From an uncultured Spirochaetales bacterium (lineage in GTDB: Bacteria; Spirochaetota; Spirochaetia; CAYLLE01), in the NCBI GenBank assembly GCA_964384485.1, contig CAYLLE010000004.1, forward strand, positions 7,379 through 71,378: a DNA stretch of 64,000 bases, given 5' to 3'. The notes under the pieces were generated by a model. It had not been told where the DNA came from. It saw nothing but the letters and a program-made list of their open reading frames with translations, and ran no database searches. The stretch's first letter is position 1. Each line of letters starts with the position of its first letter. Position numbers and translations under genes: made by a program. Positions 12,485-32,723 of this stretch are shown here, in pieces.

Positions 12485-12506
12485 CAGTAAGACGAGGAGA
12501 TCATTG

Positions 12507-13847
12507 ATGGAAACCGGGACGAGAAAGAAAAGACGACGGATGTCATACCGGGATAATGAAAACGAAAATGAACACGCGGCGATCATAGATTTTAAGATGG
12601 TAACCTTTTCTCTCGGCGGAAAAGATTACGGTATCGACATCATGAAAGTCAGCGAAATCGCAAAATTTGAGAAGTACACCTACGTTCCCAATACACTGCC
12701 TTTTGTTACCGGTGTATATAATCTGCGAAGTGATATTATCTCCCTCATCGACCTGCGCAAGATGTTTAATCTTCCCATACCTGAAAAAAACTCGGACGGG
12801 GCCGAAAACGGTTTAATTCTCCGGCTTGATAACAATATGATCGGAATCATTGTCGACTCCATCGATAAAGTAGTCGGGATCTCTTCCGAATCAATTCAGC
12901 CGCCTCATCCGATATTCGGTGATATCAATATAAAGTATATAAGCGGTGTTGTTGAAAATGACAGCCGGCTCTACATTATCCTGGACGTCGAAAAGATCTT
13001 CCAGAAAGATGAAGCACCACCTGCTCACCACGAGCCGGTAAAAGAAATTTCGGACAGTTCTCCGGCTGAACTTGGAGAACTTGAACCTTATGATTCGACG
13101 GCCCCTAGTGATCTCACTTTCGTAAAAGAGACGTTAAAAACATTTTCATCATTTTATACGACTCCAATAAATGAGCAGTGGGTAGAAGCACGGTTCAGCG
13201 AATGGTCCGAAAAGCGGCAAGAACAGAAAAGATCTGTTCAGCTGGAGAGTAAGGAAGATGGAGAAGCTTTTTTGGCACCCTTCTATTCTCCTTTTTCCGG
13301 AACTTTCTGGAACGATGAATATATTGATAAGTTTTTTTCCCTCGAAACATCAGGTTCCGCATCGAACGGGCCGGTTTTTATATGGAATCCCGGATGCGGA
13401 CAGGGTTATGAGGCCTATTCTGTTACGGCAGGTTTCCTGAAAAGAAATCCCGAAGCGAAGCTGAAAGTCTGGGCAAGTGACAATGATTTGCTCGCAATTT
13501 CTAACGCTCCGAATCTTGTCATTTCCGGTGAAGGAATGCCGGATTATCTTTCTCCCTTTGTAGCTGAAAACAAAAACGGCTTTACCCTTGGCGAAGAGCT
13601 TAAGGATCGGATTCTCTTTGAATACCACGATGTACTGCATGCCAATACAGTACCGGAAGTGGATATTATACTGTGTAGAGATCTGTTATCATTTCTAAAA
13701 CCTGAAGATCAGATGAAAATAATTGAAGAATTTGCTGAAAAGCTGAAATCCGGCGGGATACTGTGTATCGGAAACAATGAACAAGCCCCTCTGGAAGGTA
13801 TGGAGCGGGTAAACAATAGCTCCTTTTCAGCATATCGGAAACTGTAA
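12507..13847 (+). CDS. cheW: CheW domain fused to a CheR-like methyltransferase-fold domain
   Basis: The N-terminal CheW domain reads VTFSLGGKDYGIDIMKVSEI..IIVDSIDKV. The C-terminal region has a CheR-type SAM-fold signature (IWNPGCGQGYEAYS, ILCRDLLSFL). AGGAG lies 7 nt before ATG 12507. Confidence 0.8.
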   Translation: METGTRKKRRRMSYRDNENENEHAAIIDFKMVTFSLGGKDYGIDIMKVSEIAKFEKYTYVPNTLPFVTGVYNLRSDIISLIDLRKMFNLPIPEKNSDGAENGLILRLDNNMIGIIVDSIDKVVGISSESIQPPHPIFGDINIKYISGVVENDSRLYIILDVEKIFQKDEAPPAHHEPVKEISDSSPAELGELEPYDSTAPSDLTFVKETLKTFSSFYTTPINEQWVEARFSEWSEKRQEQKRSVQLESKEDGEAFLAPFYSPFSGTFWNDEYIDKFFSLETSGSASNGPVFIWNPGCGQGYEAYSVTAGFLKRNPEAKLKVWASDNDLLAISNAPNLVISGEGMPDYLSPFVAENKNGFTLGEELKDRILFEYHDVLHANTVPEVDIILCRDLLSFLKPEDQMKIIEEFAEKLKSGGILCIGNNEQAPLEGMERVNNSSFSAYRKL

Positions 13848-13874
13848 TATTATGACCATGGAGGAGCCGAACCA

Positions 13875-14339
13875 ATGAGAGTAGAATACATCAATCCATT
13901 CGTTGAATCCGCATACGGGGTATTAAAAGAAGTCTTAAATACAGAGGTAAACAGGGGGGAACTCTATTTAAAATCAACTTCAATGCCTGTACTCGGTGTC
14001 GCCGCTATTGTCGGACTGGCAGGGGATGTGGAAGGACGGGTTCTGATTGATATGACGAATCAAACAGCCGTAAAGATTGCTTCAAAAATGAACGGCGAAG
14101 AACTGTCTTCCCTTGATGACCTGGCCAAGGCAACGATAACTGAACTGGCCAATATGATTACCGCCCAGGCGGTAACGAAGCTGCATGACCAGGGGTTTAA
14201 ATTTGATCTTACACCCCCGGCCATTTTTACCGGTGAAAATATGGAAATTTCGAACCAAGGGGTGGAAGCACTTATTGTTCCGATGGAACTGCCCCAAGGT
14301 AAAATAGAAATAAACGTAGCGATACGGGAACGGACATAG
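13875..14339 (+). CDS. cheX: CheX/CheC-family CheY-P phosphatase
   Basis: The protein is 154 aa and starts MRVEYINPFVES. It carries an E-x2-N ... P phosphatase-type motif (TELANMI...TPP). It sits between cheW and cheY, as in spirochete che operons. Confidence 0.75.
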   Translation: MRVEYINPFVESAYGVLKEVLNTEVNRGELYLKSTSMPVLGVAAIVGLAGDVEGRVLIDMTNQTAVKIASKMNGEELSSLDDLAKATITELANMITAQAVTKLHDQGFKFDLTPPAIFTGENMEISNQGVEALIVPMELPQGKIEINVAIRERT

Positions 14340-14350
14340 GAGGTTTCCAA

Positions 14351-14788
14351 TTGAAATCAAAGCAAGATTTTCCAAGTATCAACGAAAGAGAACCTGAAGG
14401 GTTAAAGGAAGATGGTCAGCCGTACCGGGTGCTTGTTGTTGATGATTCCATGTTTGTTACAAAACAAATCGGGCAGATTCTCACATCAGAAGGGTTTGAA
14501 ATCGTAGGAACAGCATCCGACGGGCAGGAAGGATTGGAAAAATACAAGGAATACTTTCCGAATATCGATCTTGTTACAATGGATATAACAATGCCTAAAA
14601 TGGACGGAGTCACTGCTCTGGAAAAGATACTGGAATTTGATAAAAACGCCCGTGTAGTAATGATAAGTGCTTTAGGGAAACAGGATCTAGTAAAAAAGTC
14701 TCTGCTCATCGGAGCAAAGAATTATATTGTAAAACCCCTGGATAGAAAAAAGGTATTGGAGCGGGTAATCACCTCATTGAAAAAATAG
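14351..14788 (+). CDS. cheY: chemotaxis response regulator CheY
   Basis: The receiver domain shows VLVVDDS, the phospho-acceptor context VTMDITMPKMDG, ISALG and KNYIVKP. It uses a TTG start. Confidence 0.85.
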   Translation: MKSKQDFPSINEREPEGLKEDGQPYRVLVVDDSMFVTKQIGQILTSEGFEIVGTASDGQEGLEKYKEYFPNIDLVTMDITMPKMDGVTALEKILEFDKNARVVMISALGKQDLVKKSLLIGAKNYIVKPLDRKKVLERVITSLKK

Positions 14789-14863: not shown

Positions 14864-14937
14864 GGGCGGCTAGCTCAGTTGGTTAGAGCACTTGCTCGAC
14901 ACGCAAGGGGTCACTGGTTCGAATCCAGTGTCGCCCA
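14864..14937 (+). tRNA. tRNA-Val (anticodon GAC)
   Basis: Hand-folded cloverleaf: acceptor GGGCGGC/GTCGCCC (one G-U pair), D arm GCTC-AGTTGGTTA-GAGC, anticodon stem CTTGC/GCAAG with loop TCGACAC, variable loop GGGTC, T arm ACTGG-TTCGAAT-CCAGT, discriminator A. No CCA is encoded. Confidence 0.8.
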
Positions 14938-14942
14938 GCTTT

Positions 14943-14970
14943 AAGGCGCCATTAAGGCGCCTTTTCTTTT
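14943..14970 (+). terminator. rho-independent terminator after the tRNA / che operon
   Basis: AAGGCGCC (14943-14950) pairs with GGCGCCTT (14956-14963) across a 5-nt loop, followed by TTTTCTTTT. Confidence 0.7.
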
Positions 14971-15049: not shown

Positions 15050-16192
15050 ATGATTGAAATTAAGCCTGTAACTTCACGGAAACAGAAAAAGGATTTCGTC
15101 ATGTTTCCCTACCGCTTTTACCGGAAGATGAATTCTTTTCCCAATTGGGTCCCCCCGCTCCTAATGGATGAAAAAAAGATATTCCGGCCGGAAAAAGATC
15201 CGTTTTATCTCCATGCCGATATAAAACATTTTTTAGCATATGAAAACGGTGATGTAATCGGGCGGATTGCAGGTATTATTGACCATAATTACGTCTCATT
15301 CCACGGTGAAAAAACCGCTTTTTTCGGATTTTTTGAATGCAAAGATAATCAGGAAGCTGCCGCGGGTCTTGCAAAAGCGGCGGAAGAGTGGGCATTTAAT
15401 ATGGGGATGGAGAAGATGATAGGTCCGATGAATCCGAGTACCAATCACATACTGGGAGTACAGATTGACAACTTTGAAAGTCCACCGGTTATCCAGATGC
15501 CCTACAGCCCTCCGTTTTATGATTCTCTTCTGAAAGGCTGCGGATTCGAAAAAGAGAAGGATCTCTATTCATATATAATGGACACTTCCCTTCCGCTGTC
15601 CGATAAGATTGAGCGAGTTACGGAGCTGATGAAAAAGAGAAGCAAGGTTCAGCTCCGCAGAATTAACATGAAAGAATTCGATCGGCTGGGCGAAATGATC
15701 CGGGAAATCTGGAATGACGCCTGGAGTACGAACTGGGGTTTTGTCCCCTGGACCCAGGAGGAATTCAACCATTTAGCAAAAGACATGAAGCTTGTTCTTA
15801 TCCCCGATTTGGTTCTGCTGGCGGAAAACGAGGATGGTGAACCGGTAGGCTTCGCGTTTCCCATTCCCGATATCAACAGAATACTAATTAAAATGAGGGG
15901 AAGGCTTTTTCCTTTCGGCATTTTCAAACTGCTCGCGGGAAAGAACAAAATCCCGCTTCTCCGTGTGGCGGCCTTCGGGGTGAAAAAAAAGTATCAGAAT
16001 ACCGGTCTTGACGCGCTTTTCATCCATGAACTTTATACCCGGGGAGTAAAACTTGGAATAACCGGGGCCGATTTCTCCTGGATTTTGGAAGATAATCTAA
16101 ATCTGCGCAATTTACTGGAAGGATGGGGGACAACGCATTACAAAACCCATAGAATCTACGGAAAGAACCTGAACACCCTGAAAAGCGAGTAA
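15050..16192 (+). CDS. large GNAT-superfamily N-acyltransferase (about 380 aa, unknown substrate)
   Basis: It has a two-lobed GNAT-like layout (..GRIAGIIDHNY..FFGFFEC.. and a C-terminal ..VAAFGVKKKYQNTGLDALF..). AAGGAG lies before ATG 15050. It is the first gene of the lipid-like operon. Confidence 0.55.
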   Translation: MIEIKPVTSRKQKKDFVMFPYRFYRKMNSFPNWVPPLLMDEKKIFRPEKDPFYLHADIKHFLAYENGDVIGRIAGIIDHNYVSFHGEKTAFFGFFECKDNQEAAAGLAKAAEEWAFNMGMEKMIGPMNPSTNHILGVQIDNFESPPVIQMPYSPPFYDSLLKGCGFEKEKDLYSYIMDTSLPLSDKIERVTELMKKRSKVQLRRINMKEFDRLGEMIREIWNDAWSTNWGFVPWTQEEFNHLAKDMKLVLIPDLVLLAENEDGEPVGFAFPIPDINRILIKMRGRLFPFGIFKLLAGKNKIPLLRVAAFGVKKKYQNTGLDALFIHELYTRGVKLGITGADFSWILEDNLNLRNLLEGWGTTHYKTHRIYGKNLNTLKSE

Positions 16193-16195
16193 TTT

Positions 16196-17131
16196 ATGGC
16201 TAAAATATGTTTTTTATTTCCCGGTCAGGGAGCACAGTATCCCGGTATGGGAAAGGACCTTTGGGAATCCCATGGCCGGATCAAAGAGATTTTTGAAGCA
16301 GCCTCAGATATAAGCGGCAAAGATTTAAAATCCCTGATCTTCCAGGGTGACGAATCCGAATTGAAAAAAACCGAAAACACCCAGATAGCTGTAACGGCGG
16401 TAAATATTGCCGCCGCTGAAGCATCGGTTTCGGCAGGAATGATACCTCAGGGATGCGCCGGGTTCAGCTTGGGTGAATATTCAGCACTTTATCAATCAGG
16501 AGTTCTCACCTTAACTGATGTGTTCACCCTGGTACATAAAAGGGGAGAAGTGATGCAAAAAGCCTCTCGGTCTCTGGAAAATCCTGGTATGACCGCGGTT
16601 ATTGGTCTCTCCGGAGATGAAGTCGGGGAAGTCATTTCCGCGGGCGGATACAATAATGTCTTTACGGCTAATTTTAACAGTCCCATACAGACCGTTATTG
16701 CCGGAAAGGGGATCGAGCTTGACAGGATCGAAAAAGAGCTCGAAAACGCCGGGGCCATGAAGATTGTACGCCTAAAGGTTTCCGGTGCGTTTCATTCCCC
16801 CTTGATGCAGCAGGGGGCTGATGAGTTTAGGGATATTATTGCCCCGTTCCGATTTTCCGATCCGACCTTAAACCTCTATTCAAATGTTACCGGCGGAAGA
16901 ATTACATCCGGAAAAGACGCAAAGGAACTATGTGTAAAGCAGATCATTTCACCAGTGTTGTGGGTTGATGAGGAACAGTCAATTATTGATGACGGCTTTG
17001 ACTTTCCTGTGGAAACAGGTCCGGGAAAGGTACTCTGCGGGTTATGGAAGTCCTTTAACAAAAAAATCCGCTGCTATCCAGCTGGTTCCATGGATGACAT
17101 TAACGCCGCGCTCGCAATATCAGAACAGTAA
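16196..17131 (+). CDS. fabD: malonyl-CoA:ACP transacylase
   Basis: FLFPGQGAQYPGMG, the active-site GFSLGEYSAL and VSGAFHSPLM are present. Confidence 0.9.
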   Translation: MAKICFLFPGQGAQYPGMGKDLWESHGRIKEIFEAASDISGKDLKSLIFQGDESELKKTENTQIAVTAVNIAAAEASVSAGMIPQGCAGFSLGEYSALYQSGVLTLTDVFTLVHKRGEVMQKASRSLENPGMTAVIGLSGDEVGEVISAGGYNNVFTANFNSPIQTVIAGKGIELDRIEKELENAGAMKIVRLKVSGAFHSPLMQQGADEFRDIIAPFRFSDPTLNLYSNVTGGRITSGKDAKELCVKQIISPVLWVDEEQSIIDDGFDFPVETGPGKVLCGLWKSFNKKIRCYPAGSMDDINAALAISEQ

Positions 17132-17157
17132 ACATAGAGAAGGAGATTTTTGGTTAA

Positions 17158-18444
17158 ATGCAGAATCGTCGTGTAGTAATTACTGGAATGGGAACGATAA
17201 ATCCCTTAGGAGATACTTTAGAAGAGTATTATCATAATTTGATCGCAGGAAAATCCGGGATAAAGCGGTGGGAATCCATAGACATGACCGGTGTTGAATG
17301 TAAAGTTGGCGGTGACTTGGGAAATTACGATTTCCAAAAAAAACTTGATACTTTCCGGGATATAATTCCGGAAAGCAAGTACAAACAAATAAAGAAACTT
17401 TTCCGGTCCGCCACCTTCTCATCTAAAATGGCTGTACTTTGCGCCATGGACGCGTACAATGATGCCGGTCTGTTCGGGGCGGATTCGAATCCGTACGATA
17501 CCAGCGTCATGGTGGCCGGTCACAATTTTAATTCAAACTACATCTTTGAAAACGCTAAGATTTATCTTGAGGATCCCGATTTTATCGCTCCCTTGAGCGG
17601 TGTCGAAGCCATTGATCCCAATATTCCAGCCACAATTTCGGAGGTTTTAGAAGTCCAAGGACCCACATTCACCCTCGGGGGTGCATGTGCAAGCGGTAAT
17701 TTGGCTCTGCGAGCGGGATTCAGAGATATTGTCTCCGGAGAATGCGTCCGCTCAGTGGTAGCTGGCCCCCCGTTTGATGTTTCACCACCGGACATTCAGG
17801 CCTCAGTCATAATAAATGCCGTAGTTGTTAAAGAGAAATACCAGAACAATCCTGAGGGGGCTTCCCGTCCTTTTGACACGGACAGATGCGGATTTGTTTA
17901 TTCCCACGGTTCCGGGACACTCATTTTAGAGGAGCTCGAATCCGCGCTCGCGAGGGGTGCTCATATCTACGGTGAAATACTCGGTGTGACGGCAAACGCG
18001 AACGCAAATCATCTGCCCATGCCCGGAGCAGCCAACCAGCAGCAGGTCATGGAGCAGGTGCTTAAAATTTCCGGTGTAAAACCCGAACAGATCGACTATG
18101 TCAACTGTCACGCAACCGGTACTCCGTCGGGTGATCTTCAGGAAATTAAAGCGGTAAAAAATACTTTTGGCAATCACACGAAGTCCCTCTATTTGAATGC
18201 TCCGAAATCGATGCTGGGGCATACCTGCTGGGCCTCCCCCCTGGTGGAAACTATCGGGGGACTGCTGCAGATGAAACACGGGAAACTGCATCCGACCATA
18301 AACATAACGGAACAGGACCCGGAGGTTGATCTCGAGATTTGTGCCAATGCACCGGTGGAACATTCAATTCAGTACATGCTCAAGAATTCCTTCGGTTTTG
18401 GGGGAATTAACTGCTGCAGTTTGATAAAACGATTTGAGGTTTAA
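17158..18444 (+). CDS. beta-ketoacyl-ACP synthase (KAS I/II fold, divergent from FabF)
   Basis: The Cys-His-His triad is intact: GGACASGN, NCHATGTPSGD, SMLGHTCWAS. C-terminal NSFGFGGIN is present. Confidence 0.85.
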   Translation: MQNRRVVITGMGTINPLGDTLEEYYHNLIAGKSGIKRWESIDMTGVECKVGGDLGNYDFQKKLDTFRDIIPESKYKQIKKLFRSATFSSKMAVLCAMDAYNDAGLFGADSNPYDTSVMVAGHNFNSNYIFENAKIYLEDPDFIAPLSGVEAIDPNIPATISEVLEVQGPTFTLGGACASGNLALRAGFRDIVSGECVRSVVAGPPFDVSPPDIQASVIINAVVVKEKYQNNPEGASRPFDTDRCGFVYSHGSGTLILEELESALARGAHIYGEILGVTANANANHLPMPGAANQQQVMEQVLKISGVKPEQIDYVNCHATGTPSGDLQEIKAVKNTFGNHTKSLYLNAPKSMLGHTCWASPLVETIGGLLQMKHGKLHPTINITEQDPEVDLEICANAPVEHSIQYMLKNSFGFGGINCCSLIKRFEV

Positions 18445-18445
18445 T

Positions 18446-19186
18446 ATGAACATTTTAATAACCGGCGGATCCCGGGGAATAGGACGGAATCTTGTCTTGA
18501 AATTCGCCCGGGAAGGATACGGCTGCGCGTTCACCTATCGGGGTAACAAGGATAAAGCGGAAGAAACCATTGCCCTGGCTAAAGAGGCAGCTCCGGATAG
18601 GGTTATCCGAAGTTATGCCCTAGATTTAGGAAATTCCGGGGAGATCGAGAAAACAGTTGACACCGTTTTGGACGACTTTGGAGATATCCACTGCCTGGTC
18701 AATAATGCCGCCATGCTCAGAGATAACGCCGCGGCGTTTATGACCGACGATGAGTGGGAATCTGTAATCCGCACCAATTTATCCGGTCCGTTTTATATGA
18801 TCCGGTCGCTCCTGATGAACTTTGTTTCGAACAGGATGGGAAGAATAATCAACATCTCATCACTGGCCCAGGACGGCAGCAGCGGTCAGGTCAATTACGC
18901 AGCCAGTAAAGCCGGGCTCATCGGTCTGTCCAACACCATAGCCCGGGAATACGGACCGAAAAATATTACATCGAATATCGTAGTCGTGGGATATGTCCCA
19001 ACCGACATGACCAGGGACAATATGGCTCAAAGACTAAAATCTATATGGGATCAATACTGTCCTATGAAGCGGAGCGGCAAAGCATCGGAAATTTCAGGTC
19101 TGGTTCACTATCTTACAACCCCTGATGCGTCGTTTATAAACGGTGAAATTATCCATGTCTCAGGCGGTCTCACCTATGTCCCATAA
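18446..19186 (+). CDS. fabG: 3-oxoacyl-ACP reductase (classical SDR)
   Basis: ITGGSRGIGR, NNAA and the catalytic YAASKAG (YxxxK) are present. GAGG lies 7 nt before ATG 18446; the track start is 18434. Confidence 0.85.
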   Translation: MNILITGGSRGIGRNLVLKFAREGYGCAFTYRGNKDKAEETIALAKEAAPDRVIRSYALDLGNSGEIEKTVDTVLDDFGDIHCLVNNAAMLRDNAAAFMTDDEWESVIRTNLSGPFYMIRSLLMNFVSNRMGRIINISSLAQDGSSGQVNYAASKAGLIGLSNTIAREYGPKNITSNIVVVGYVPTDMTRDNMAQRLKSIWDQYCPMKRSGKASEISGLVHYLTTPDASFINGEIIHVSGGLTYVP

Positions 19187-19201
19187 AAAGGAGATGATTT
19201 A

Positions 19202-20431
19202 ATGAACACAGTAGGAATAGAAAAAATAAATCTTTATGGAAGTTCACTTTACCTTGATCAGCGTGATTTAGCTGTAGCCCGGGGACAGGAGCCTGAAAAG
19301 GTTGTCTCCGACTTCCTTATCGAATCCCGTTCGGTTAGTCCGCCTTGGGAGGACACAGTAACAATGGGAGCAAATGCCGCGTTACCCATGCTGTCAAAAC
19401 AGGATCTTGAGGACATCGGTTTGTTGGTCGTGGGAACGGAAAGTTCCCTCGATTTCGGCAAACCCGTGAGTACGAATATCCACTCCGCCCTGGGACTCCA
19501 TCCGAATGTCCGGAATTTCGAGACGAAGCATGCCTGTTACAGCGGTGTAGCGGCGCTGGATACCGCAGTAAACTGGATTGCCTCCGGTCTGAACGGCGGG
19601 AGAAAGGCACTGGTCATTTCTACCGATTTCAGCAGGATGCACCTGAATACCAAAGAAGAGTTTGTACTTGGCGGTGTTGCCGCGGCGGCACTGCTCAGTG
19701 AAACCCCTAAGGTGGTTGAATATGAGACTCAAAATAAGGGGACCTGGACCACCGACGCGTATGATACATTCCGTCCCAGCGCTTTCCATGAAATCGGGAA
19801 TAATGAGGTTAGCCTTTTCACCTATATGGACGCCTTAGAAGGAGCTTTTACTCATTATCAGGAGAGAACGGGCAATCAGTTTAACTTTGATAACGATTTC
19901 AGCAGATTAACTTACCATACCCCGTTCGCGGGTATGGCTTTTCAGGCCCACAGAACATTGTGTAATCTCACAAATCCGAGACCGAAAAAGGAAGTTAAAG
20001 AAGATTTTTCCCGCCGTGTTTATCCGGGACTTCGTTTTGCCCAGCGGGTAGGGGGAACCTACGGTGCAAGCAACTTCGTCGCGTTATGCGGTCATCTTTC
20101 GGGATCTGAACCGGTAAAACCAGGCAGCAGGATCGGATTTTTTGCCTACGGATCAGGGGCTATCGGAGAATTCTATTCCGGCACGGTATGTGAAGAAGCA
20201 GTAAATGCGGTGGCTTCCATGAATATTGATGACAAACTTGCATCCAGGCGTAACGTAACGGTGGATCAATACGAAATTCTCGAGCAGCTGAAAGAAGGGT
20301 ACATTGAGAAATCGGATTTCATTCCGCAGAAAGAGGGATTTGAAGAAGTATACCGTTCCCATTACCAAGGCACCGGGAAATTGGTGCTGAAAGGGGTGAA
20401 GGGGTTCTACAGGACGTATGAACGGGTGTAG
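19202..20431 (+). CDS. HMG-CoA synthase-family enzyme, PksG/CurD-like beta-branching HMG-ACP synthase
   Basis: The catalytic Glu/Cys/His contexts are VGTESSLDFGK, KHACYSG and YHTPFAGM. The length (409 aa) and motif order match the HCS family. Confidence 0.8.
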   Translation: MNTVGIEKINLYGSSLYLDQRDLAVARGQEPEKVVSDFLIESRSVSPPWEDTVTMGANAALPMLSKQDLEDIGLLVVGTESSLDFGKPVSTNIHSALGLHPNVRNFETKHACYSGVAALDTAVNWIASGLNGGRKALVISTDFSRMHLNTKEEFVLGGVAAAALLSETPKVVEYETQNKGTWTTDAYDTFRPSAFHEIGNNEVSLFTYMDALEGAFTHYQERTGNQFNFDNDFSRLTYHTPFAGMAFQAHRTLCNLTNPRPKKEVKEDFSRRVYPGLRFAQRVGGTYGASNFVALCGHLSGSEPVKPGSRIGFFAYGSGAIGEFYSGTVCEEAVNAVASMNIDDKLASRRNVTVDQYEILEQLKEGYIEKSDFIPQKEGFEEVYRSHYQGTGKLVLKGVKGFYRTYERV

Positions 20432-20434
20432 CTG

Positions 20435-21256
20435 ATGGACAGGGTCATTATTTCCCGGGATTCAGGAGTATGCTACATAACCCTCAATGACGGCTCTAAC
20501 GGGAACCGGCTTGACGGCCGTTTCATCAATGATATCCTTAATGGTCTTCGTGCTGCCGAATCGGACGGTTCGGTAAAAGCGGTCATGTTCCGTTCCTCGT
20601 CTCCTGTGTTTTCCCTGGGGATGAATCTGGATTTAGCTGCCAAGAAATCCGGTAAAGGAGAAACAGCTGAGACGGCAGTAAAGTCTTACGGCAGAATGCT
20701 CAGCAGGATTCGCGGTCTGGTCAAGCCGGTTTTGGCTTTGGTGGAGGGGGAGGTTAAAGCCGGCGGTGTGGGCATTGTATGTGCCTGTGACGCTGTTCTT
20801 GCGTCCGAAACGGCATCATTTGAGCTGGGGGAGGTGTTATTCGGTTTGATACCTGCCAACGTGCTGCCCTATCTCCTTTTACGGATCTCTCCGCAAAAAG
20901 CCCGGTATCTAATCATGACAGCAAAAAAAATCGACGCTGCGGAAGCCCTGGCGATCGGTTTAGCTGACGAAGTCTTTCCCGCACAAGCAGCGGAAAAGAC
21001 GGTCCGGAAAAGACTAAAAAATATATGCCGGTCATCTCCGAATGCATTAGCTGAAGTGAAACAATTTACGTCTAAGCTGCTCGATTTATCTTTTCATGAA
21101 CAGCTTGATCCGGCGGTAGAAAAGCTCACGGAGATGCTGAAAAACGAAGATATACTGGAAGGAATCAGGTCCTTTCAGTCGGGAAATCTGCCTGTCTGGT
21201 TCGGCAAGTTTTCACCGAAAGAACCAATTTCGCTACAACTGGAGGAAAAGGAATGA
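20435..21256 (+). CDS. enoyl-CoA hydratase/crotonase-fold protein (ECH1, PksH-like dehydratase candidate)
   Basis: It has a crotonase fold: VFSLGMNLD, ALVEGEVKAGGVGI, FELGEVLFGLIP. It sits directly after the HMGS homologue. Confidence 0.7.
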   Translation: MDRVIISRDSGVCYITLNDGSNGNRLDGRFINDILNGLRAAESDGSVKAVMFRSSSPVFSLGMNLDLAAKKSGKGETAETAVKSYGRMLSRIRGLVKPVLALVEGEVKAGGVGIVCACDAVLASETASFELGEVLFGLIPANVLPYLLLRISPQKARYLIMTAKKIDAAEALAIGLADEVFPAQAAEKTVRKRLKNICRSSPNALAEVKQFTSKLLDLSFHEQLDPAVEKLTEMLKNEDILEGIRSFQSGNLPVWFGKFSPKEPISLQLEEKE

Positions 21257-22002
21257 AAGAAACAATCCGTTCCGAAATGGATGAACATGGTATTGCTTAT
21301 CTGTATATGGAAGACAAAGAGGGGAAAAACATTTTTTCCGACACCTTTATAGAAGGATTCATCCGGGAAATAGAACACATCGAGACTGAACTCGAACCCT
21401 CTGTGCTCATCTTAAAAGGACTTGAAGATGTATTCTGCGGAGGAGCAGAAAAGGAAGGCCTTCTTGACCTTTGCGACGGTAAAGTTGTGGTAAAAGATCT
21501 CGTCCTCTCGGAACGGCTGATAAATACTCCGTTTCCGGTCATAGCGGCTATGGAAGGACACGCAATGGGCGGAGGATTAGTTCTGGGCCTTTGCAGCGAT
21601 ATCATTATAATGGCCCGGGAGAGCCGATACGGAGCTGTGTTCATGACTTTAGGCTTTACCCCCGGAATGGGGACAACGACGCTTCTGCCGGGACTTGTGG
21701 GACCGTATATCGCAAATGAAATGATGTTCACCGGAAAAAGGTACCGGGGTTCCGAACTTGCCGGGAAAGGTGTACCGATCAATTATATTCTCCCGAAAAA
21801 AGAAGTTGTGACAAAAGCAGAAGATATCGCCCGTCAAATCGCTGAGCGGAATAAAAAATCGGTCTATTTACTGAAATATGCTCTTAGCGCAAAAAAGAAA
21901 AAACTGCTTGTCGACGCGCGGCTGCAGGAGGATATGATGCACCGGATTTCGTTCGGATTTTCGGAAACAAAAAAAATAATAGAAGAATTTTACGCTGGAT
22001 AG
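21253..22002 (+). CDS. enoyl-CoA hydratase/isomerase-fold protein (ECH2, PksI/CurF-like decarboxylase candidate)
   Basis: AAMEGHAMGGGLVLGL, YGAVFMTLGFTPGMGTT and EMMFTG match the ECH2 signature as I recall it from PksI. The start overlaps the ECH1 stop (ATGA). Confidence 0.7.
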   Translation: MKETIRSEMDEHGIAYLYMEDKEGKNIFSDTFIEGFIREIEHIETELEPSVLILKGLEDVFCGGAEKEGLLDLCDGKVVVKDLVLSERLINTPFPVIAAMEGHAMGGGLVLGLCSDIIIMARESRYGAVFMTLGFTPGMGTTTLLPGLVGPYIANEMMFTGKRYRGSELAGKGVPINYILPKKEVVTKAEDIARQIAERNKKSVYLLKYALSAKKKKLLVDARLQEDMMHRISFGFSETKKIIEEFYAG

Positions 22003-22019
22003 AATAAGGAGTGTACCCA

Positions 22020-22832
22020 ATGATTACGATAGATTACACCGGTAAATCCGTTCTCATAACAGGCGGCACGAAAGGGATAGGGAAAGCTGCGGCATTGAAT
22101 TTCGCCAGTGCCGGAGCCAGAACGTATTTGACATACAAATGGGGATCCGCCGATGAGTCCGCCCTGTTCGATGAATTCCGTCAAACAGGAGGTCCGGAAC
22201 CGGTACTGATTCAGGCTGATGTGTCTGTTGAGGAAGATACAAAAGCGCTTTTTTCAAAGATTGCTGAAACCGAAAAAAAGCTTAACGTTTTTATAAGCAA
22301 TGTAGGCTTCGCTTCCACCCCTCAGAGTCTAAAAGATTATAAAAAGCGGTCTCTCTTCAAAACACTTGAATACAGTACCTGGCCGCTTATCGATTACACC
22401 CTCATGATAGAAAAAACTTTCAATGCCTATCCTGACTACATCCTGGGTATATCCAGTGACGGTCCCGATCATTTCTATAAAGGATACGACTACGTGGCGG
22501 CCTCAAAGGCGCTGCTTGAGTTCTTCTCGAAGTATCTGTCGGCCCATCTTTTTGATGAAAACTGCAAAGTTAATGTAATCCGTTTCGGTACAGTGAAAAC
22601 CGAGTCCTTTGACGCGGTGTTCGGTAACGATTTTTTTGAGTATCTCAAATCGGAAGGAATATCTTCTGAGAGGATCCTGACACCAGCCGAATGCGGTAAA
22701 ACAATTTTCGGAATCTGCAGCGGTTTTATGGATACCGTGAATGGACAAATAATCACCGCGGACCGGGGTATAACCTATATGGATAACACCATGAGGCGGT
22801 ATCAGCGCTGGAAAGAAGAAAAGGGACAGTAG
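22020..22832 (+). CDS. SDR-family enoyl-ACP reductase-like protein (FabL/FabI-type Y-x6-K)
   Basis: ITGGTKGIGKAAA is present. YDYVAASKALLE gives Tyr-x6-Lys, the enoyl-reductase spacing, rather than the YxxxK of ketoreductases. AAGGAG lies 8 nt before ATG 22020; the track start is GTG 22011. Confidence 0.6.
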   Translation: MITIDYTGKSVLITGGTKGIGKAAALNFASAGARTYLTYKWGSADESALFDEFRQTGGPEPVLIQADVSVEEDTKALFSKIAETEKKLNVFISNVGFASTPQSLKDYKKRSLFKTLEYSTWPLIDYTLMIEKTFNAYPDYILGISSDGPDHFYKGYDYVAASKALLEFFSKYLSAHLFDENCKVNVIRFGTVKTESFDAVFGNDFFEYLKSEGISSERILTPAECGKTIFGICSGFMDTVNGQIITADRGITYMDNTMRRYQRWKEEKGQ

Positions 22833-22856
22833 ATTCTATACAAAATCTATACATTT

Positions 22857-22938
22857 CAGCAATTTCAGGTAATGACGATTTATGTAATTGCTGGATACAG
22901 TGCTTAGAGGTTGATAGAAGCGGCAATTTACGGTATGG
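22857..22938. repeat. two REP-like units in the 169-nt intra-operon gap (site E)
   Basis: CAGCAATTTCAGGTAATG (22857-22874) and CGGCAATTTACGGTATGG (22921-22938) both match the unit consensus. TTTATGTAATTGCTGG (22879-22894) lies between them. Confidence 0.5.
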
Positions 22939-23001
22939 TACCCTCTATACCATTAAAACTGTGCCGGATAACCGGCTGCACCATTTAGAAAGGAGTGAAA
23001 A

Positions 23002-23247
23002 ATGACAAAACCTGAAGTCATGGAAGTAATCAAAAAAAATATCGTCGAAAATTTAGACGACATAGAAATGGATGATATTGATCCGAAAAAGTCTATGAAA
23101 GATTACGGAGCAAATAGTCTTGATATGATTGAGGTTGTCTCCTGTTCCATGCGGGAACTCAACATTAAAATTCCGAGATCGGAATTGGCAGATATTGCCA
23201 CAATAGACGAACTTGCCGATAAGTTCATGGAATATGTAGAAAATTAA
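23002..23247 (+). CDS. acyl carrier protein (non-housekeeping type)
   Basis: The protein is 81 aa. The phosphopantetheine site context is DYGANSLDMIEVV. A strong AAAGGAG Shine-Dalgarno is present. The sequence is unlike the canonical AcpP DLGADSLDTVELV context. Confidence 0.85.
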   Translation: MTKPEVMEVIKKNIVENLDDIEMDDIDPKKSMKDYGANSLDMIEVVSCSMRELNIKIPRSELADIATIDELADKFMEYVEN

Positions 23248-23275
23248 TCAAATTGACCGAGGTGCGGAGGATATA

Positions 23276-24532
23276 ATGTCAGATATTCTAAAATATAGCT
23301 TTGCTGATTTCCATTACAACGATAACCCTGATGTCCTGTCTCCGCCGGAAGACTTTATCAAATGGGTAAACCATCCGGCGGTTAAGAACGGTTTCAGTTT
23401 TACCGAGCAGCAGCTTCTTGCCGCACCTCGGGCACGTACCGAAATCCTGAGTAATATTGACAATCAGAAGCGGAAAATCATCAACCTTACATCGTATAAT
23501 TACCTCGGTCTTTCCACTCATCCCGAGGTTATTCAGGCCGCCAAGGAAGGTCTGGATCAGTACGGGATGGGTGCATCGGGAGCTCCCATGCTGTCCGGAA
23601 CCTTCGATCTGCATACCGAATTTGCCAGACGGCTGGCTGAATTCAAACAGAAAGAAGCGTGCCTGGTGTACTCAAGCGGTTACGGCGGCAACATCGGGGC
23701 CATTCAAGGAATAATGCGGAAAGGTGATATCCTGATCCTCGATGAGAAATGTCACGCCAGTCTGGTGGACGGGGGAACCCTGGCACAGGTGAAAATGCTT
23801 TTCTTTGAGCATAACAATCCCGAATCACTGGTCGCCATGCTGGAACGGGCGAAAGGAAAACGTGTTCTCGTTGTAGTGGAGGGAGTTTATTCCATGGATG
23901 GAGACCTGGTTAAACTTCCGGAGGTTGTCGAAATATGCGACCAATACGGAGCAGGACTCTATCTCGATGAAGCCCATTCAACACTGATGTTCGGCGAAAA
24001 CGGTAGGGGTGTGGCGGAACATTTCGGTCTGGAAGACAAAGTCGGAGTCAGCTTTGGTACACTCAGTAAGTCTTTCGGAGGTGTAGGGGGATTTATCTGC
24101 TCAAACGCCGCTCTTATTCAATACATGAAAGGGTATTCCCATCCGTGGAACTTTTCCTGTGCCATATCACCGCCGGTTGTTGCAGGGCTTATAAAAGCAC
24201 TTGAAGTTGCCACCAGGGACTCTTCTCTTCGGGATAAGCTGTGGGAAAATACAGCGTATCTTAAAAAAGGACTCACCAGTTTGAACCTCAATTTGGGAGA
24301 TACCGCATCCCAGGTCATCCCGGTTATTATCGGTCCCGACGGAACCAAACTCATGTCCTTCGCGGCGGAGATGCAGAAGCGGGGACTCTTCCTTCAGCCG
24401 GTAGACTTCCCGGCCGTACCTGCCAATGCGAGGCGGTTCAGAATATCCGTTTCTTCCCAGCTGACGAAAGAAGATATGGATACTGTTCTAAATATCATCG
24501 AGGATGTAATTGTTAAAGGTTTGAAGTCCTAA
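23276..24532 (+). CDS. alpha-oxoamine synthase (PLP-dependent acyltransferase; serine palmitoyltransferase / BioF / KBL family)
   Basis: LTSYNYLGL, SGYGGNIG, VVVEGVYSMDGD, LDEAHS and the PLP-lysine motif GTLSKSFGG are present. There is a ~60-aa N-terminal extension. Confidence 0.85.
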   Translation: MSDILKYSFADFHYNDNPDVLSPPEDFIKWVNHPAVKNGFSFTEQQLLAAPRARTEILSNIDNQKRKIINLTSYNYLGLSTHPEVIQAAKEGLDQYGMGASGAPMLSGTFDLHTEFARRLAEFKQKEACLVYSSGYGGNIGAIQGIMRKGDILILDEKCHASLVDGGTLAQVKMLFFEHNNPESLVAMLERAKGKRVLVVVEGVYSMDGDLVKLPEVVEICDQYGAGLYLDEAHSTLMFGENGRGVAEHFGLEDKVGVSFGTLSKSFGGVGGFICSNAALIQYMKGYSHPWNFSCAISPPVVAGLIKALEVATRDSSLRDKLWENTAYLKKGLTSLNLNLGDTASQVIPVIIGPDGTKLMSFAAEMQKRGLFLQPVDFPAVPANARRFRISVSSQLTKEDMDTVLNIIEDVIVKGLKS

Positions 24533-25086
24533 TGACCGATTCTTCTGAGCCTGACTATCAATCTCTTCTGAGGAAGTTTAGACGCAAGCCTCTCTTCCCG
24601 CTGGAACAGGACGACTTGTTCGTCCGGGTAGATTATTCCGGAGAAGATATAAAAAAACTAATTCCGCACCGGGATCCCTTTCTTCTGGTAGACAGAATTA
24701 CCGGTCTCGATGTAACTAACCGCCGAATTATCGGAGAAAAGCACCTCTCCCCTGCATTGCCGGTATTCCAGGGGCATTTCCCGGGATATCCGGTATATCC
24801 CGGAACTCTGGAGGTGGAGATGCTCGGTCAATTAGGTCTTTGTCTCTTCCCGTTCATCCTGAGCGGTACCACGGATATCCCGGAATTTTCTGATCAGACC
24901 GCCATCCGGGCTACCCGGATTATCGGCGCGTACTATGTAGAGCCTGTTCTGCCGGATACTACCGTGACAATACTTTCACAAGGGTATGAGTATGACGGGT
25001 ATTTCGGCAGAAGCATCGGCCAGGTTATATCCGGCGGCAAAGTCTGCTGTGTTGCCGCCGGCGAGGTTATTTTCCTAGAATCGTGA
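24532..25086 (+). CDS. FabZ/FabA-like hotdog 3-hydroxyacyl-ACP dehydratase
   Basis: IPHRDPFLLVDRI, the catalytic His in FQGHFPGYPVYPG and Glu in LEVEMLGQ are present. The start overlaps the AOS stop (TAATG). There is a ~35-aa N-terminal extension. Confidence 0.8.
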   Translation: MTDSSEPDYQSLLRKFRRKPLFPLEQDDLFVRVDYSGEDIKKLIPHRDPFLLVDRITGLDVTNRRIIGEKHLSPALPVFQGHFPGYPVYPGTLEVEMLGQLGLCLFPFILSGTTDIPEFSDQTAIRATRIIGAYYVEPVLPDTTVTILSQGYEYDGYFGRSIGQVISGGKVCCVAAGEVIFLES

Positions 25087-26319
25087 CATAATCAATACTG
25101 CATTATGGCCGCCGAATCCGAAAGAATCGGATAAAATGTGTTTTATATTTTTATCTTCCCTCGGTTCCTTGATCACATTAAGTTCAATCTTCGGGTCCTG
25201 GTTAAACTGATTTATTGTCGGATGTATGATTCCCTTCTCGAACGCCATAATCGAAGCGATGGCTTCCACACTGCTCGACGCGGCGATAAGGTGTCCGATC
25301 ATCGATTTTGTACTGTGTGCCGGACATTCGCGGATATAATCGCCGAAACTCATCTTGAGAGCCTTTGCTTCCATTTCATCACCCATAGGAGTGGAGGTGG
25401 CATGACAATTTATGAGGTCAATATCCTCCGGATTAAGCTTGGCCATATCCAAGGCCATTTTCACTGCCCGGGAGGAACCACGCGCTTCCGGATGGGGCGC
25501 AACTAAGTCATAGGCGTCGCTGGATACGCCGAAACCGGTGATCTCACAGTAGATTTTGGCACCCCTCCGTTTGGCATGTTCTAATTCTTCCAGACAAATA
25601 CAGCCGCCTCCTTCTCCCATAACAAACCCGTCCCGGTCTTTATCGAACGGCCGCGACGCTGTCTCCGGGGAATCATTCCTCGTAGACAGAGCCATTATAT
25701 TGCCGAACGCCGCAACACCTGGTCTGCACAGGGCTGCCTCAGCACCGCCCGCAATCATGGCATCGGCCATTCCGTTTTTGATAAGCATCCAGGCAAGAAA
25801 AATGGCATGGTTACTGGTGGCACAGGCTGAATTGACCGAAAATGTGGGAGCCTGCAGATTGTATTCCTGAGAAAGAAAGGCGGTGGATGTGTTCGGAATT
25901 GCGCTTACAATATAAAAGGGAGAAGCGCCGCTCATACCGGTGGTGTGTACTCTGGTGATATTATCAACATGAGCATTTACCCCGCCGGCACCGGTTCCGA
26001 TTATCGCACCATATCGTTCCGGGGCTTTATCAACATCCAATCCTGAATCTATGATCGCCTGGGCTCCCGCTACATGACCAAAAACGATATACCGGTCGAG
26101 ACGCCTCCGCATCTTCTTTGATTTGAAATACTCTGATACATCGGGTATATCAACCTCCGCCGCAATCTGAACCGAATAATCTGATAAATCGGTATTCTGA
26201 GCTATCCGAACCCCGTTTTTTCCTTTAAGGAGATTTCCCCAGAACTCTTCTACGGTATTTCCGATTGGATTTATTGTCCCAAGACCGGTTATTACAACCC
26301 GCACATCATTATTATTCAT
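25075..26319 (-). CDS. fabF: beta-ketoacyl-ACP synthase II
   Basis: These are canonical FabF motifs: NSACATSNHAI, NCHATSTPMGD, KSMIGHLIAAS, SFGFGGHNAVL. Confidence 0.92.
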   Translation of the reverse strand: MNNNDVRVVITGLGTINPIGNTVEEFWGNLLKGKNGVRIAQNTDLSDYSVQIAAEVDIPDVSEYFKSKKMRRRLDRYIVFGHVAGAQAIIDSGLDVDKAPERYGAIIGTGAGGVNAHVDNITRVHTTGMSGASPFYIVSAIPNTSTAFLSQEYNLQAPTFSVNSACATSNHAIFLAWMLIKNGMADAMIAGGAEAALCRPGVAAFGNIMALSTRNDSPETASRPFDKDRDGFVMGEGGGCICLEELEHAKRRGAKIYCEITGFGVSSDAYDLVAPHPEARGSSRAVKMALDMAKLNPEDIDLINCHATSTPMGDEMEAKALKMSFGDYIRECPAHSTKSMIGHLIAASSSVEAIASIMAFEKGIIHPTINQFNQDPKIELNVIKEPREDKNIKHILSDSFGFGGHNAVLIMSRF

Positions 26320-26644: not shown

Positions 26645-27190
26645 ATGGCCTACTTTAAATCCTACGAAGAACCTCTAAATGCTGTGATGCAGCGGATGAT
26701 ATCTAAGACATCCAGGCCAAAGATATTGGAATACGGTCCCGGCGGTTCAACCAAACTGATGATGAATACTGCCCCTGAATCTGAAATATTCTGTATAGAA
26801 CATAACCGAAAGTGGTATGAGCATTATAAAACCGAATTTGAGGAATTCTCCCCCAATAAACCCGATCTCCATTATATTCCGCTCAAGGAGAATTATGTAA
26901 CTCTGTCGCGAGAAAAATTTGATCCCCGATCTCTTGATTTGATCTACGTGGACGGCCGGAAAAGAGTTGCCTGCCTCGACTTAGCAAAAACACTTATCAA
27001 ACAGGAAGACGGAATTATCGTTCTGCATGATGCCGAGCGTCCCCGTTACCGGAAGGGACACAAGGAATGGCCTTTGGATAAGAAAATATGGGCCGGTCCG
27101 AAAGGGAGCCGGACATTGATCCTGGTTACCGACCCCAAAGATTATGAAGCACTAATCCACCTGGAGACGGAGCCTCCAAACCGGCGGTGA
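26645..27190 (+). CDS. class I SAM-dependent methyltransferase-like protein
   Basis: ILEYGPGGST (motif I-like), IYVDGRKR and IIVLHDAERP resemble small O-methyltransferase-fold proteins. The call is weak. Confidence 0.4.
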   Translation: MAYFKSYEEPLNAVMQRMISKTSRPKILEYGPGGSTKLMMNTAPESEIFCIEHNRKWYEHYKTEFEEFSPNKPDLHYIPLKENYVTLSREKFDPRSLDLIYVDGRKRVACLDLAKTLIKQEDGIIVLHDAERPRYRKGHKEWPLDKKIWAGPKGSRTLILVTDPKDYEALIHLETEPPNRR

Positions 27191-27191
27191 C

Positions 27192-27284
27192 CAGTAATTC
27201 CCGGTCAACCCGATTGATGTAATTGTGTGCAATAAACAAATTATAAATTTAAACGCGGTTGTGATCACCGGAAATTGCCGTTTT
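27192..27284. repeat. REP-like inverted pair between convergent genes (site B)
   Basis: CAGTAATTCCCGGTCAAC (27192-27209) and GATCACCGGAAATTGCCG (27263-27280, inverted) flank a 53-nt AT-rich spacer. The left arm starts 2 nt after the methyltransferase stop. The right arm contains the stop and last codons of the gene at 27265..28281. Confidence 0.8.
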
Positions 27285-28281: not shown

Positions 28282-28285
28282 ACTG

Positions 28286-29038: not shown

Positions 29039-29053
29039 ATTCCGGTAATTTTC

Positions 29054-30469: not shown

Positions 30470-30979
30470 TCATGATGTTAATTCCGATCCCTTAGCCATC
30501 AGTACCTTACCTGTCCGAACCACTTCAATAAGACCGAACGGTTTTAAAACTGTAAGCACCGAATCAAGCTTCTCACTGCTTCCGGTTACTTCAAAGGTAA
30601 CCATGTTCTCTCCCACATCCACGGGATCACATTTAAACGCGGAAGCCACCTGGAGTATATCGGTCCGGTTTTCCGAGTTGCTTTCCACCTTAATAAGAGC
30701 TAACTCACGCTGAATAATATCATGACCAGTTTGGTCGGTGGCATGGATTACATCTACCAGTTTATTTAGCTGTTTCAGAATCTGCTCAAGGGTCTCTTCG
30801 TCCCCTGTGGCCACAATATTCATCCGGGAAAAGGAGGGATCATCGGTTTCAGAAACAACAAGACTGTCTATATTGAATGCCCGCCGGGCGAACACAAGAG
30901 ATATCCGGATAAGTACACCCGGTTTATTGCTTACCAATAAACTTATTGTGTGTTTCCGTAAAGCTGTTTCTGTTGTCAT
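30470..30979 (-). CDS. ilvN: acetolactate synthase small (regulatory) subunit
   Basis: The ACT domain reads [31 protein letters not shown]. The gene overlaps the ilvB stop by 4 nt. Confidence 0.88.
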
Positions 30980-32688: not shown

Positions 32689-32723
32689 CACATGCCCCCT
32701 AATAAAGTTAAAAATACAGATTA

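Follow-up and report, generated by a model that had tools for sequence, protein, structure and literature searches.

A conserved gene cluster joining a beta-branching HMG-synthase cassette to ceramide-type enzymes in uncultured Spirochaetota: a candidate route to methyl-branched sphingolipids

Bacterial ceramide synthesis in Caulobacter (CC_1154, CC_1162-1165) and E. coli BL21 (ECD_02850-02854) proceeds through a serine palmitoyltransferase (Spt, or SPT), the ceramide synthase bCerS and the reductase CerR, with the acyl carrier protein (ACP) AcpR and the synthetase AasR (PMC9386255, PMC11087976, PMC11324152). A second group of related systems comprises the polyketide beta-branching cassettes of bacillaene (PksF/AcpK/PksG/H/I), curacin (CurB-F) and mupirocin/thiomarinol (MupG/H/J/K), which have in common with the locus described here a 3-hydroxy-3-methylglutaryl (HMG) synthase (HMGS), the crotonase-fold enzyme ECH1, a PksI-type ECH2 and a donor-type ACP. 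The present analysis concerns an operon at positions 15050-25086 of a 64-kb window, the whole stretch of DNA analysed, from the metagenome-assembled genome (MAG) of an uncultured Spirochaetales bacterium. This operon encodes an HMGS cassette together with an alpha-oxoamine synthase (AOS), a ceramide-synthase homologue and a set of discrete enzymes resembling those of fatty acid synthase (FAS), and it probably constitutes a self-contained, dedicated type II route to a methyl-branched sphingolipid of the ceramide type.

Precedents exist for either half of the system, whereas their combination appears to be new. The literature searched, whose coverage was thin for subscription journals, holds no description of an HMGS cassette coupled with an AOS or with ceramide enzymes, and none of sphingolipid genes in Spirochaetota. 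To our knowledge, sphingolipid producers are likewise undescribed in uncultured Spirochaetota, FCPU426 and Aminicenantes.

Beta-alkylation machinery was reportedly identified by Sato et al. in 2019 in a type II polyketide synthase (PKS), that for fogacin in Actinoplanes missouriensis. Cited in PMC11522927, the fogacin system offers a precedent for an HMGS cassette that works with discrete, non-modular enzymes; it reportedly relies, however, on pairs of ketosynthase (KS) and chain-length factor and yields aromatic polyketides, whereas FAS-like reducing partners and amino-lipid release are predicted here. An original prediction made for this DNA had held that no characterised pathway shares the composition of the operon. 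The literature searched agrees on the composition as a whole, but the use of discrete enzymes for beta-alkylation does appear to be preceded by fogacin.

A further point of comparison is PfSgaAB of Pseudomonas fluorescens MYb115, in which an iterative type I PKS and a discrete AOS make sphinganines (PMC12134224). There, and by prediction here, the long-chain base is made de novo by a dedicated synthase of the polyketide/fatty-acid type and passed to a discrete AOS, rather than being drawn from the fatty-acid pool. Yet SgaA combines its domains in one PKS protein and has no beta-branching cassette, whereas the spirochete locus encodes separate proteins, an HMGS cassette and a linked bCerS homologue.

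Ceramide-type enzymes of the cluster

All three enzymes of the Spt-bCerS-CerR pathway have homologues at this locus:

15050..16192, + strand: N-acyltransferase of the bacterial ceramide synthase family (bCerS/CerS/YghO), by full-length homology; earlier called a GNAT
23276..24532, + strand: pyridoxal-phosphate-dependent AOS, serine-palmitoyltransferase-like, by the Aminotran_1_2 profile and PDB scores
27265..28281, - strand: candidate ceramide (3-keto) reductase, CerR-like and of the NAD-dependent epimerase family, by homology; 2 kb downstream of the operon

Families were assigned throughout by Pfam and NCBIfam profile searches, and equivalog cutoffs are the curated ones of NCBIfam. The first gene had been taken for a generic GNAT. 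While a weak match to the GNAT profile was indeed recovered (26 bits), with no NCBIfam match, the generic label did not stand, as the product of 380 amino acids aligns end to end with YghO of E. coli BL21 (380 amino acids, 33% identity, E 8e-67). The E. coli BL21 gene yghO (ECD_02850) is the orthologue of Caulobacter CC_1154, and the adjoining ECD_02851-02854 are aasR, epi, acpR and spt (PMC9386255). In a search of plasmid records, the protein was 40% identical to the product of a Rubrobacter gene that is flanked by an AOS gene and an NAD(P) reductase gene, and 36% identical to that of a Roseomonas gene standing in the order LptF/LptG, desaturase, GNAT, nucleotidyltransferase. This order mirrors Caulobacter CC_1156-1153, in which CC_1156/1155 are LptF2/G2, CC_1154 is CerS and CC_1153 is a nucleotidyltransferase (PMC11324152). 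A homologue from KSB1 (P0231, 49% identity) overlaps the stop codon of an AOS gene and has no HMGS cassette nearby. Together, these comparisons place the GNAT in the bCerS family, as the putative N-acylating enzyme of the pathway. A decarboxylating GNAT of the CurA type was considered as well, and was rejected given the absence of any PDB sequence match at E<=1 and the full-length homology to YghO/CC_1154.

The AOS scores highest among solved structures against the SPT of Sphingobacterium (257 bits), followed by Kbl and BioF-Kbl (221-223) and the SPT of Sphingomonas (216-220), with the cysteate acyltransferase (205), BioF (170) and 5-aminolevulinate synthase behind SPT. It is 33% identical to E. 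coli Spt (E 6e-65) and 37% identical to the Spt-like gene product of Rubrobacter, and has the DEAHS motif and the SKS motif around the Lys in common with Spt. The protein nevertheless falls under every NCBIfam equivalog cutoff, reaching 262-319 with the SPT models, whose cutoffs are 500-670, 338 with bioF (cutoff 426) and 325 with Kbl (cutoff 460). A role as BioF or Kbl was rejected on the strength of these scores and because no bioA/B/D genes occur among the conserved neighbours.

These figures bear upon the identity of the amino acid. Spt-like genes are found in 38 phyla of Black Sea MAGs, and Spt-like enzymes may take alanine or other amino acids (PMC11334938). Were cysteate the substrate, a lipid of the capnine or sulfonolipid type would result, while alanine or glycine would give 1-deoxy- or nor-sphingoid lipids, in each case still N-acylated by the GNAT. 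Such a substrate would suit an AOS that forms a clade of its own and passes no SPT model, as would the 205 bits scored by the solved cysteate-C-fatty acyltransferase against 216-257 for the SPTs. It is nonetheless distinctly unlikely: the top solved matches are SPTs, no cysteate synthase or amino-acid supply gene stands among the conserved neighbours, and the homologues of bCerS and CerR are known from serine-based ceramide pathways.

A second alternative concerns the size of the product. The original prediction had allowed for an alpha-hydroxyketone-type signal, and isovaleryl-ACP, 3-methylcrotonyl-ACP or another short branched acyl-ACP could be imagined to give rise to a small diffusible amino-ketone or alpha-hydroxyketone of the CqsA/LqsA kind. 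CqsA-type AOS enzymes do make such signals, the AOS matches the CqsA model PRK07179 in part, and a chemotaxis operon precedes the cluster. However, the match of 209 bits lies far under the cutoff of 428, CqsA structures are absent from the 39 PDB matches of the AOS at E<=1e-40, a tRNA gene and a terminator-like hairpin stand between the chemotaxis operon and the cluster, and the conserved neighbourhood contains no sensor kinase. A signal of this kind would moreover leave nothing to do for the elongation genes, the ceramide-synthase homologue and the lipid reductase, and it has only a very slim chance of being the product.

The reductase gene downstream of the operon encodes a protein that matches, over its full length, both the epi/CerR orthologue ECD_02852 of E. 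coli BL21 (29%, E 4e-26) and the reductase of the Rubrobacter triad (31%, E 6e-33). It also has the same best NCBIfam models as the E. coli epi protein, namely the 3-oxo-lipid reductase OleD and HpnA. Homologues of the GNAT and of the reductase adjoin in three loci of the genome survey described below (L013, L044 and L075). Taken together, the bCerS-family GNAT, the CerR-like reductase and the AOS whose nearest solved relatives are SPTs lend support to the original proposal of a sphingoid-like lipid formed from a branched acyl-ACP and an amino acid.

As with acpR and spt, a gene for a small dedicated ACP lies directly 5' of the AOS gene. There are, however, clear differences from the known pathway. 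Neither an AasR acyl-ACP synthetase nor any other AMP-ligase gene was found in the cluster or among its conserved neighbours; the acyl chain would instead be assembled on the ACP by FabD, two ketosynthases, a ketoreductase (KR), a dehydratase (DH), an enoyl reductase (ER) and the HMGS cassette. The carrier protein itself is AcpK-like, not AcpR-like, and the AOS stands outside the curated SPT models. The cluster is not a Rhodobacteria-type AasR/AcpR system.

The beta-branching cassette and its type II partners

The cassette consists of three consecutive genes:

19202..20431, + strand: HMGS, putatively ACP-dependent and of the polyketide kind; HMG_CoA_synt N and C domains, with PDB, NCBIfam and identity comparisons
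20435..21256, + strand: ECH1, predicted crotonase-fold dehydratase of the HMG-thioester; ECH_1, best NCBIfam model PRK07112
21253..22002, + strand: ECH2, predicted decarboxylase of the PksI/CurF type; ECH_1, PRK07110 at 272 against a cutoff of 215

Among solved structures, HMGS scores highest against CurD (249.5 bits), followed by PksG (234), 8s81 (227) and the MvaS of Myxococcus xanthus (222), with other MvaS enzymes at about 170. Its last ~45 residues align, among these PDB matches, with CurD and 8s81 only, which fits the C-terminal extension carried by polyketide HMG synthases (PMC11522927). In plasmid records, it is 35-39% identical to enzymes encoded beside trans-acyltransferase (trans-AT) megasynthases or KS/ECH partners, and 30-33% identical to the reductase-linked MvaS of Melissococcus. 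By these measures HMGS is closer to the polyketide HMG synthases CurD and PksG than to MvaS, and it presumably acts on ACP-bound substrates. By neighbour joining, the family forms a clade of its own beside the polyketide enzymes.

The original prediction had considered a mevalonate enzyme unlikely, and this can be upheld. HMGS scores 261 with the MvaS equivalog TIGR01835, whose cutoff is 360, and the PDB scores and identities point the same way. No HMG-CoA reductase was found among the conserved neighbours, and both IspG (52975-54069, +) and IspH (35014-35862, -) are encoded within the window. A mevalonate role for HMGS was therefore rejected.

ECH1 reaches 158 with the PksH-type model PRK07112, under its cutoff of 250; its best PDB matches are isohexenylglutaconyl-CoA hydratase (105 bits) and a PksH homologue (97). 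ECH2 matches PksI (154 bits) and the ECH2 of CurF (139) well ahead of the next crotonase (75), and both its GFTPGMG motif and the His of its MMH motif are conserved. The gene order HMGS-ECH1-ECH2 was kept in 52/52 loci, and the usual order of modular-PKS cassettes, KS-HMGS-ECH1-ECH2, is likewise kept here. By sequence, then, the HMGS set is a true beta-branching cassette, with two departures that involve the KS and the ACP. These belong to the remaining genes of the cluster:

16196..17131, + strand: FabD, malonyl-CoA:ACP transacylase; TIGR00128 at 262.3 against 260.9, GFSLGEY
17158..18444, + strand: KS with intact Cys-His-His, dedicated; best NCBIfam model PRK07103, 'polyketide KS'
18446..19186, + strand: FabG-like 3-ketoacyl-ACP reductase; YAASK, alternative TTG start at 18434
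22011..22832, + strand: ER of the short-chain dehydrogenase/reductase (SDR) family, distantly FabL-like; Y-x6-K, FabL model
23002..23247, + strand: ACP of 81 amino acids, AcpK (donor) type; PP-binding, best NCBIfam model PRK07117
24532..25086, + strand: hotdog dehydratase (DH), FabZ/ApeI-like; Pfam FabA, ApeI-like also in the precomputed annotation, GHFPG
25075..26319, - strand: FabF, canonical ketoacyl-ACP synthase II; TIGR03150 at 497.1 against 493.75

The eleven-gene layout that had been claimed for the operon was borne out, as were its spacing, its motifs, the convergent fabF and the families as searched by profile. Eleven open reading frames (ORFs) on the + strand span 15050-25086 with intergenic distances of -11 to +28 nt, bar one gap of 169 nt (22833-23001) between the ER and ACP genes, whose length is not conserved (median 38 nt at other loci). 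The convergent fabF overlaps the end of the DH gene by 12 nt. Read directly, the translations contain all of the quoted motifs: in addition to those listed above, GACASG, CHATG and LGH in the KS as its Cys-His-His triad, GTES, HACYSG and YHTPF in HMGS around its Glu, Cys and His, GANSLD in the ACP and GTLSKSFG in the AOS.

The KS, along with all of the orthologues examined, retains its catalytic Cys (GACASG), which suggests that it is competent for condensation. In the polyketide cassettes, the corresponding Cys is replaced: TmpG has Ser (GASASG) and the Methylosinus KS has Met (GGMASG). The condensation-incompetent KS of those cassettes is thus not found here. The KS reaches 315 with PRK07103 (cutoff 445) and 306 with the fabF model (cutoff 494).

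The second departure arises from the ACP. It scores 61 with PRK07117, under the cutoff of 79, and 30-36 with AcpP models; it aligns full-length and gap-free with the B. velezensis ACP preceding BaeG (34%, E 2e-17), and over only 48 amino acids with E. coli AcpR (25%, E 6e-05). Across phyla, its orthologues are 63-93% identical to the window ACP, a conservation above that of any cluster enzyme, and the 38 of them compared are near-invariant around GANSLD (consensus KsMKDyGANSLDmIEVVScSMRELnIKiPRsEL). A conserved Trp is reported to flag the acceptor ACPs of polyketide synthases (Haines et al. 2013). None of the 38 orthologues has a Trp, and the polyketide acceptor flag is therefore missing, as is the megasynthase acceptor ACP that would carry it. 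In comparison with the modular-PKS cassettes, the locus further differs in lacking a megasynthase, in the predicted release of the chain by an AOS and in an HMGS that is just 35-39% identical and in a separate clade. Since two of the defining features are lacking, the cluster cannot strictly be counted among the polyketide cassettes.

With regard to housekeeping fatty acid synthesis, only FabD (262 > 261) and FabF (497 > 494) pass their equivalog models. The KS (306 < 494), the FabG-like protein (TIGR01830, 222 < 298), the DH (69 < 155), the ACP (~31 < 70) and the ER (97 < 328) all remain below, and the core is accordingly read as a dedicated type II synthase with its own ACP. The FabG-like protein also scores high with the flexirubin model FlxB. 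The ER has FabL as its best NCBIfam model and B. subtilis FabL (3oic, 61 bits) as its best PDB match, and the DH reaches 69-71 with FabZ models, below their cutoffs of 113-155, and about 60 bits with FabZ structures.

Conservation and the predicted pathway

HMGS loci were collected from one genome per GTDB species; 104 were found and 80 kept, and gene counts were taken over the loci with sufficient flank. The cluster occurs in ~100 species-level genomes of uncultured bacteria from sediments, peat and groundwater. Most of the loci are from Spirochaetota MAGs, with others from FCPU426, Aminicenantes, Firestonebacteria, one Chlamydiae bin and an Olavius spirochete endosymbiont, and metagenomes contain hundreds of HMGS relatives at 58-80% identity. 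Complete MAG chromosomes with the cluster include OZ246985.1, OZ245056.1 and CBDDOY010000001.1. The co-occurrence that had been suggested as a check on the eleven-gene block was found for nine of the genes: a core of KS-FabG-HMGS-ECH1-ECH2-ER-ACP-AOS-DH is collinear in ~50 species-level genomes of several phyla, mainly Spirochaetota. The KS and FabG are present in 64/65 loci each, ECH1 and ECH2 in 52/52, the ER, ACP and AOS in 50/52 and the DH in 49/52. The operon arrangement is conserved and not a product of chance, and the cluster is not confined to spirochetes.

The remaining genes are less constant. Within 10 kb, FabF is present in 31/38 loci and FabD in 15/38; the fabF gene either converges on the 3' end of the core or immediately precedes the KS gene in the same direction. 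A phosphopantetheinyl transferase (PPTase) gene stands 3' of the cluster in ~30 loci (19 of the Sfp type and 11 of the EntD type; for example, L004 16851-17609); neither a PPTase nor a second ACP was found in the 64-kb window. In seven loci, the PPTase gene is followed by that of a flippase-like protein of the LPG_synthase_TM family (L004 17588-18739), and in L061 and L063 an MMPL-family transporter gene lies directly 5' of the GNAT gene (3410-5713 in L063, same position in L061). A role for these two proteins in lipid export is possible. Several apparent neighbour families (c12, c13, c14, c16 and c23) were set aside as shadow ORFs on the antisense strand of GC-rich genomes.

Three loci depart from the common arrangement. 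On a Spirochaetia chromosome (L064, 7944-12795), only KS-FabG-HMGS-ECH1-ECH2 is present, and ER-ACP-AOS-DH is absent within 10 kb. A Spirochaetia MAG (L081, 9381-12044) and Candidatus Haliotispira prima (L082, 9255-12116) each have an HMGS of 51% identity, an ECH1 homologue and a common upstream ORF of 169 amino acids, without KS, FabG, ECH2, ER, ACP or AOS; by this gene content, theirs is a different HMGS system.

With few exceptions, the HMGS cassettes characterised so far come from PKS systems of the trans-AT or cis-AT kind, and the window represents just 64 kb of a MAG, so it may be asked whether the cassette serves a modular PKS encoded elsewhere. The statement that the 64 kb contain no megasynthase holds true: the longest ORF is of 1123 amino acids, and the two largest encode UvrA and a protein without a Pfam match. 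Nor was a megasynthase found within ±10 kb of the HMGS gene in any of the 80 loci when all ORFs of at least 700 amino acids were screened for KS, AT, KR or ACP similarity; the sole match, in the window's largest ORFs and the 80 loci together, was a run-on ORF containing HMGS itself, and a hidden PKS was rejected. In addition, the cassette forms one collinear block with the ACP, the AOS and FAS-like genes in ~50 species, and its KS keeps the Cys, unlike the KSs of PKS cassettes. Service to a distant PKS or, given the evidence from MvaS models and the Isp enzymes above, to the mevalonate pathway is hardly credible.

The following route is instead proposed, in which the enzyme classes derive from sequence evidence, while we infer the order of the steps and the substrates. 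FabD would load malonate onto the dedicated ACP, and the KS, with its retained Cys, would give acetyl-ACP by decarboxylation and a beta-ketoacyl-ACP by condensation. HMGS would then add acetate at the beta-keto group, with ECH1 dehydrating and ECH2 decarboxylating the product, as the identity of the cassette suggests, and the FabL-like reductase would saturate the result to leave a beta-methyl branch. Ordinary elongation cycles on the ACP would be run by FabF, the FabG-like and FabZ-like proteins and the same enoyl reductase, until the SPT-like AOS joins the chain to an amino acid, most probably serine, in a Claisen condensation that frees it from the ACP. By analogy with Caulobacter and E. 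coli, the GNAT would N-acylate the AOS product and the CerR-like reductase would reduce the 3-keto group. De novo synthesis on the ACP would in this manner replace AasR, which charges AcpR in proteobacteria. To judge from the enzymes encoded, the product is most likely an undescribed methyl-branched sphingolipid.

If this route is correct, it would join polyketide beta-branching to bacterial sphingolipid synthesis, and HMG-synthase cassettes would work in primary-type lipid metabolism with no megasynthase. It would also represent a third feed for serine palmitoyltransferase, de novo on a dedicated ACP, next to the known acyl-CoA/AasR-AcpR and iterative PKS feeds, and would yield methyl-branched long-chain bases from acetate alone, without branched-chain amino acids. 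At 9-13 genes, the cluster is a portable target, and the predicted lipid class could be sought in environmental lipidomes.

As to the point at which the cassette acts, a sub-model is tentatively preferred, with slightly less than even confidence, in which acetoacetyl-ACP is converted into an isovaleryl-ACP primer and an iso-branched long-chain base results. It is the simplest variant, and is preferred because every gene would then have a job and the ancestral HMGS substrate would be used. An alternative route to isovaleryl-CoA in Myxococcus xanthus (MvaS, LiuC, AibA/B, AibC) leads from acetoacetyl via HMG, 3-methylglutaconyl and 3-methylcrotonyl to isovaleryl, the primer of iso-branched lipids. 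Its chemical logic equals that of the sub-model, and, as noted earlier, M. xanthus MvaS scores 222 bits with HMGS. Yet the intermediates are carried there by CoA, and here would be carried by ACP; the decarboxylase and reductase there are unrelated proteins, the one resembling glutaconate CoA-transferase and the other a medium-chain dehydrogenase/reductase, whereas a crotonase-type ECH2 and an SDR would serve here. CurD accepts acetoacetyl on the donor ACP with 3-fold lower efficiency (PMC11522927), which by analogy makes it plausible that one ACP acts as both donor and acceptor.

Conversely, the cassette might act late, intercepting a long 3-ketoacyl-ACP shortly before release, so that the methyl branch (or a 3-methyl-2-enoyl unit) would adjoin the head group, at about C5 of the long-chain base, instead of standing at the iso terminus. 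The identities of the enzymes would be the same as in the proposed route. The nearest relatives of HMGS, the polyketide HMG synthases, take long and varied acceptors (PMC11522927), and the Cys-containing KS could move a housekeeping acyl chain to the ACP by one condensation, in replacement of AasR. Late action, though a serious rival, is nevertheless rather unlikely, as the strictly co-conserved FabG-like and FabZ-like proteins would have no clear job unless more cycles follow, and the active sites of CurD and HMG-CoA synthases are reported to be essentially identical and suited to acetoacetate (PMC11522927).

Iterative use of the cassette, in alternation with KR/DH/ER cycles, would give several regularly spaced methyl branches and an isoprenoid-looking sphingoid chain, made from acetate alone by a type II system. 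A condensation-competent KS and a single ACP common to all steps would allow such repeated rounds, and this reading is given an outside chance. If it were true, methyl-branched biomarkers found in anoxic sediments could have such lipids as a source that has gone unrecognised.

Several points weigh against the proposed route to a methyl-branched ceramide-type lipid as a whole. In a small tree that took in E. coli Spt, BioF and Kbl and the Spt-like protein of Rubrobacter, the AOS forms a separate clade, with 27-34% identity to Spt, Kbl and BioF alike; given this position and the failed SPT cutoffs, it is taken for an SPT mainly from context, and its amino-acid substrate is read from context only. 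The GNAT is found within 10 kb in under half of the loci (17/38), and the assignment of the CerR-like reductase corresponds to 29-31% identity within the large SDR family, with linkage within 10 kb in just 6/38 loci. Neither a Cys-less KS nor a Trp-flagged acceptor ACP is present, although both are standard in classical cassettes, which makes the route of the acetyl donor and the identity of the acceptor guesses. The chain length at which HMGS acts is not fixed by the sequence, and none of the sequence features compared separates early from late action. Lastly, the 80 loci yielded no cultured host.

Surroundings of the cluster

On its 5' side, the lipid cluster is set apart from a chemotaxis operon by tRNA-Val(GAC) (14864-14937, +) and a terminator-like hairpin (14943-14963) of 8 pairs, 6 of them G-C, with a T-rich tail, the two together occupying 14864-14963. 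Rfam, promoter and terminator scans gave nothing beyond these two elements upstream, and promoter-like matches were at chance level (23 found, 18.8 expected). The chemotaxis operon (10160-14788) encodes CheA, a CheW-CheR fusion with both domains in one ORF of 447 amino acids, CheX and CheY.

On the 3' side, the functional unit reaches past 25086 to fabF and probably includes the reductase at 27265-28281. The latter is one of four genes past fabF (26645-30220), the others encoding a protein of 181 amino acids with a faint methyltransferase match, a CPBP/Rce1-like membrane protease and a GT28-type glycosyltransferase that resembles diglucosyl-diacylglycerol synthases. In the closest relative, L003, this set accompanies the cluster, as part of it does in L004, L006 and L013; its members could have tailoring or export roles.

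Further along the window, the ORF of 1123 amino acids (57911-61282) comes immediately after uvrA and has no Pfam match even at E<=0.01. The other surroundings (30470-32691, 35014-38336 and 45700-52549) are of a housekeeping nature, with ilvB/ilvN, ispH, pdxS/pdxT and subunits of a V-type ATPase. The ilvBN genes also lie beside the cluster in L053 and a few more loci, a neighbourhood that is probably inherited synteny.

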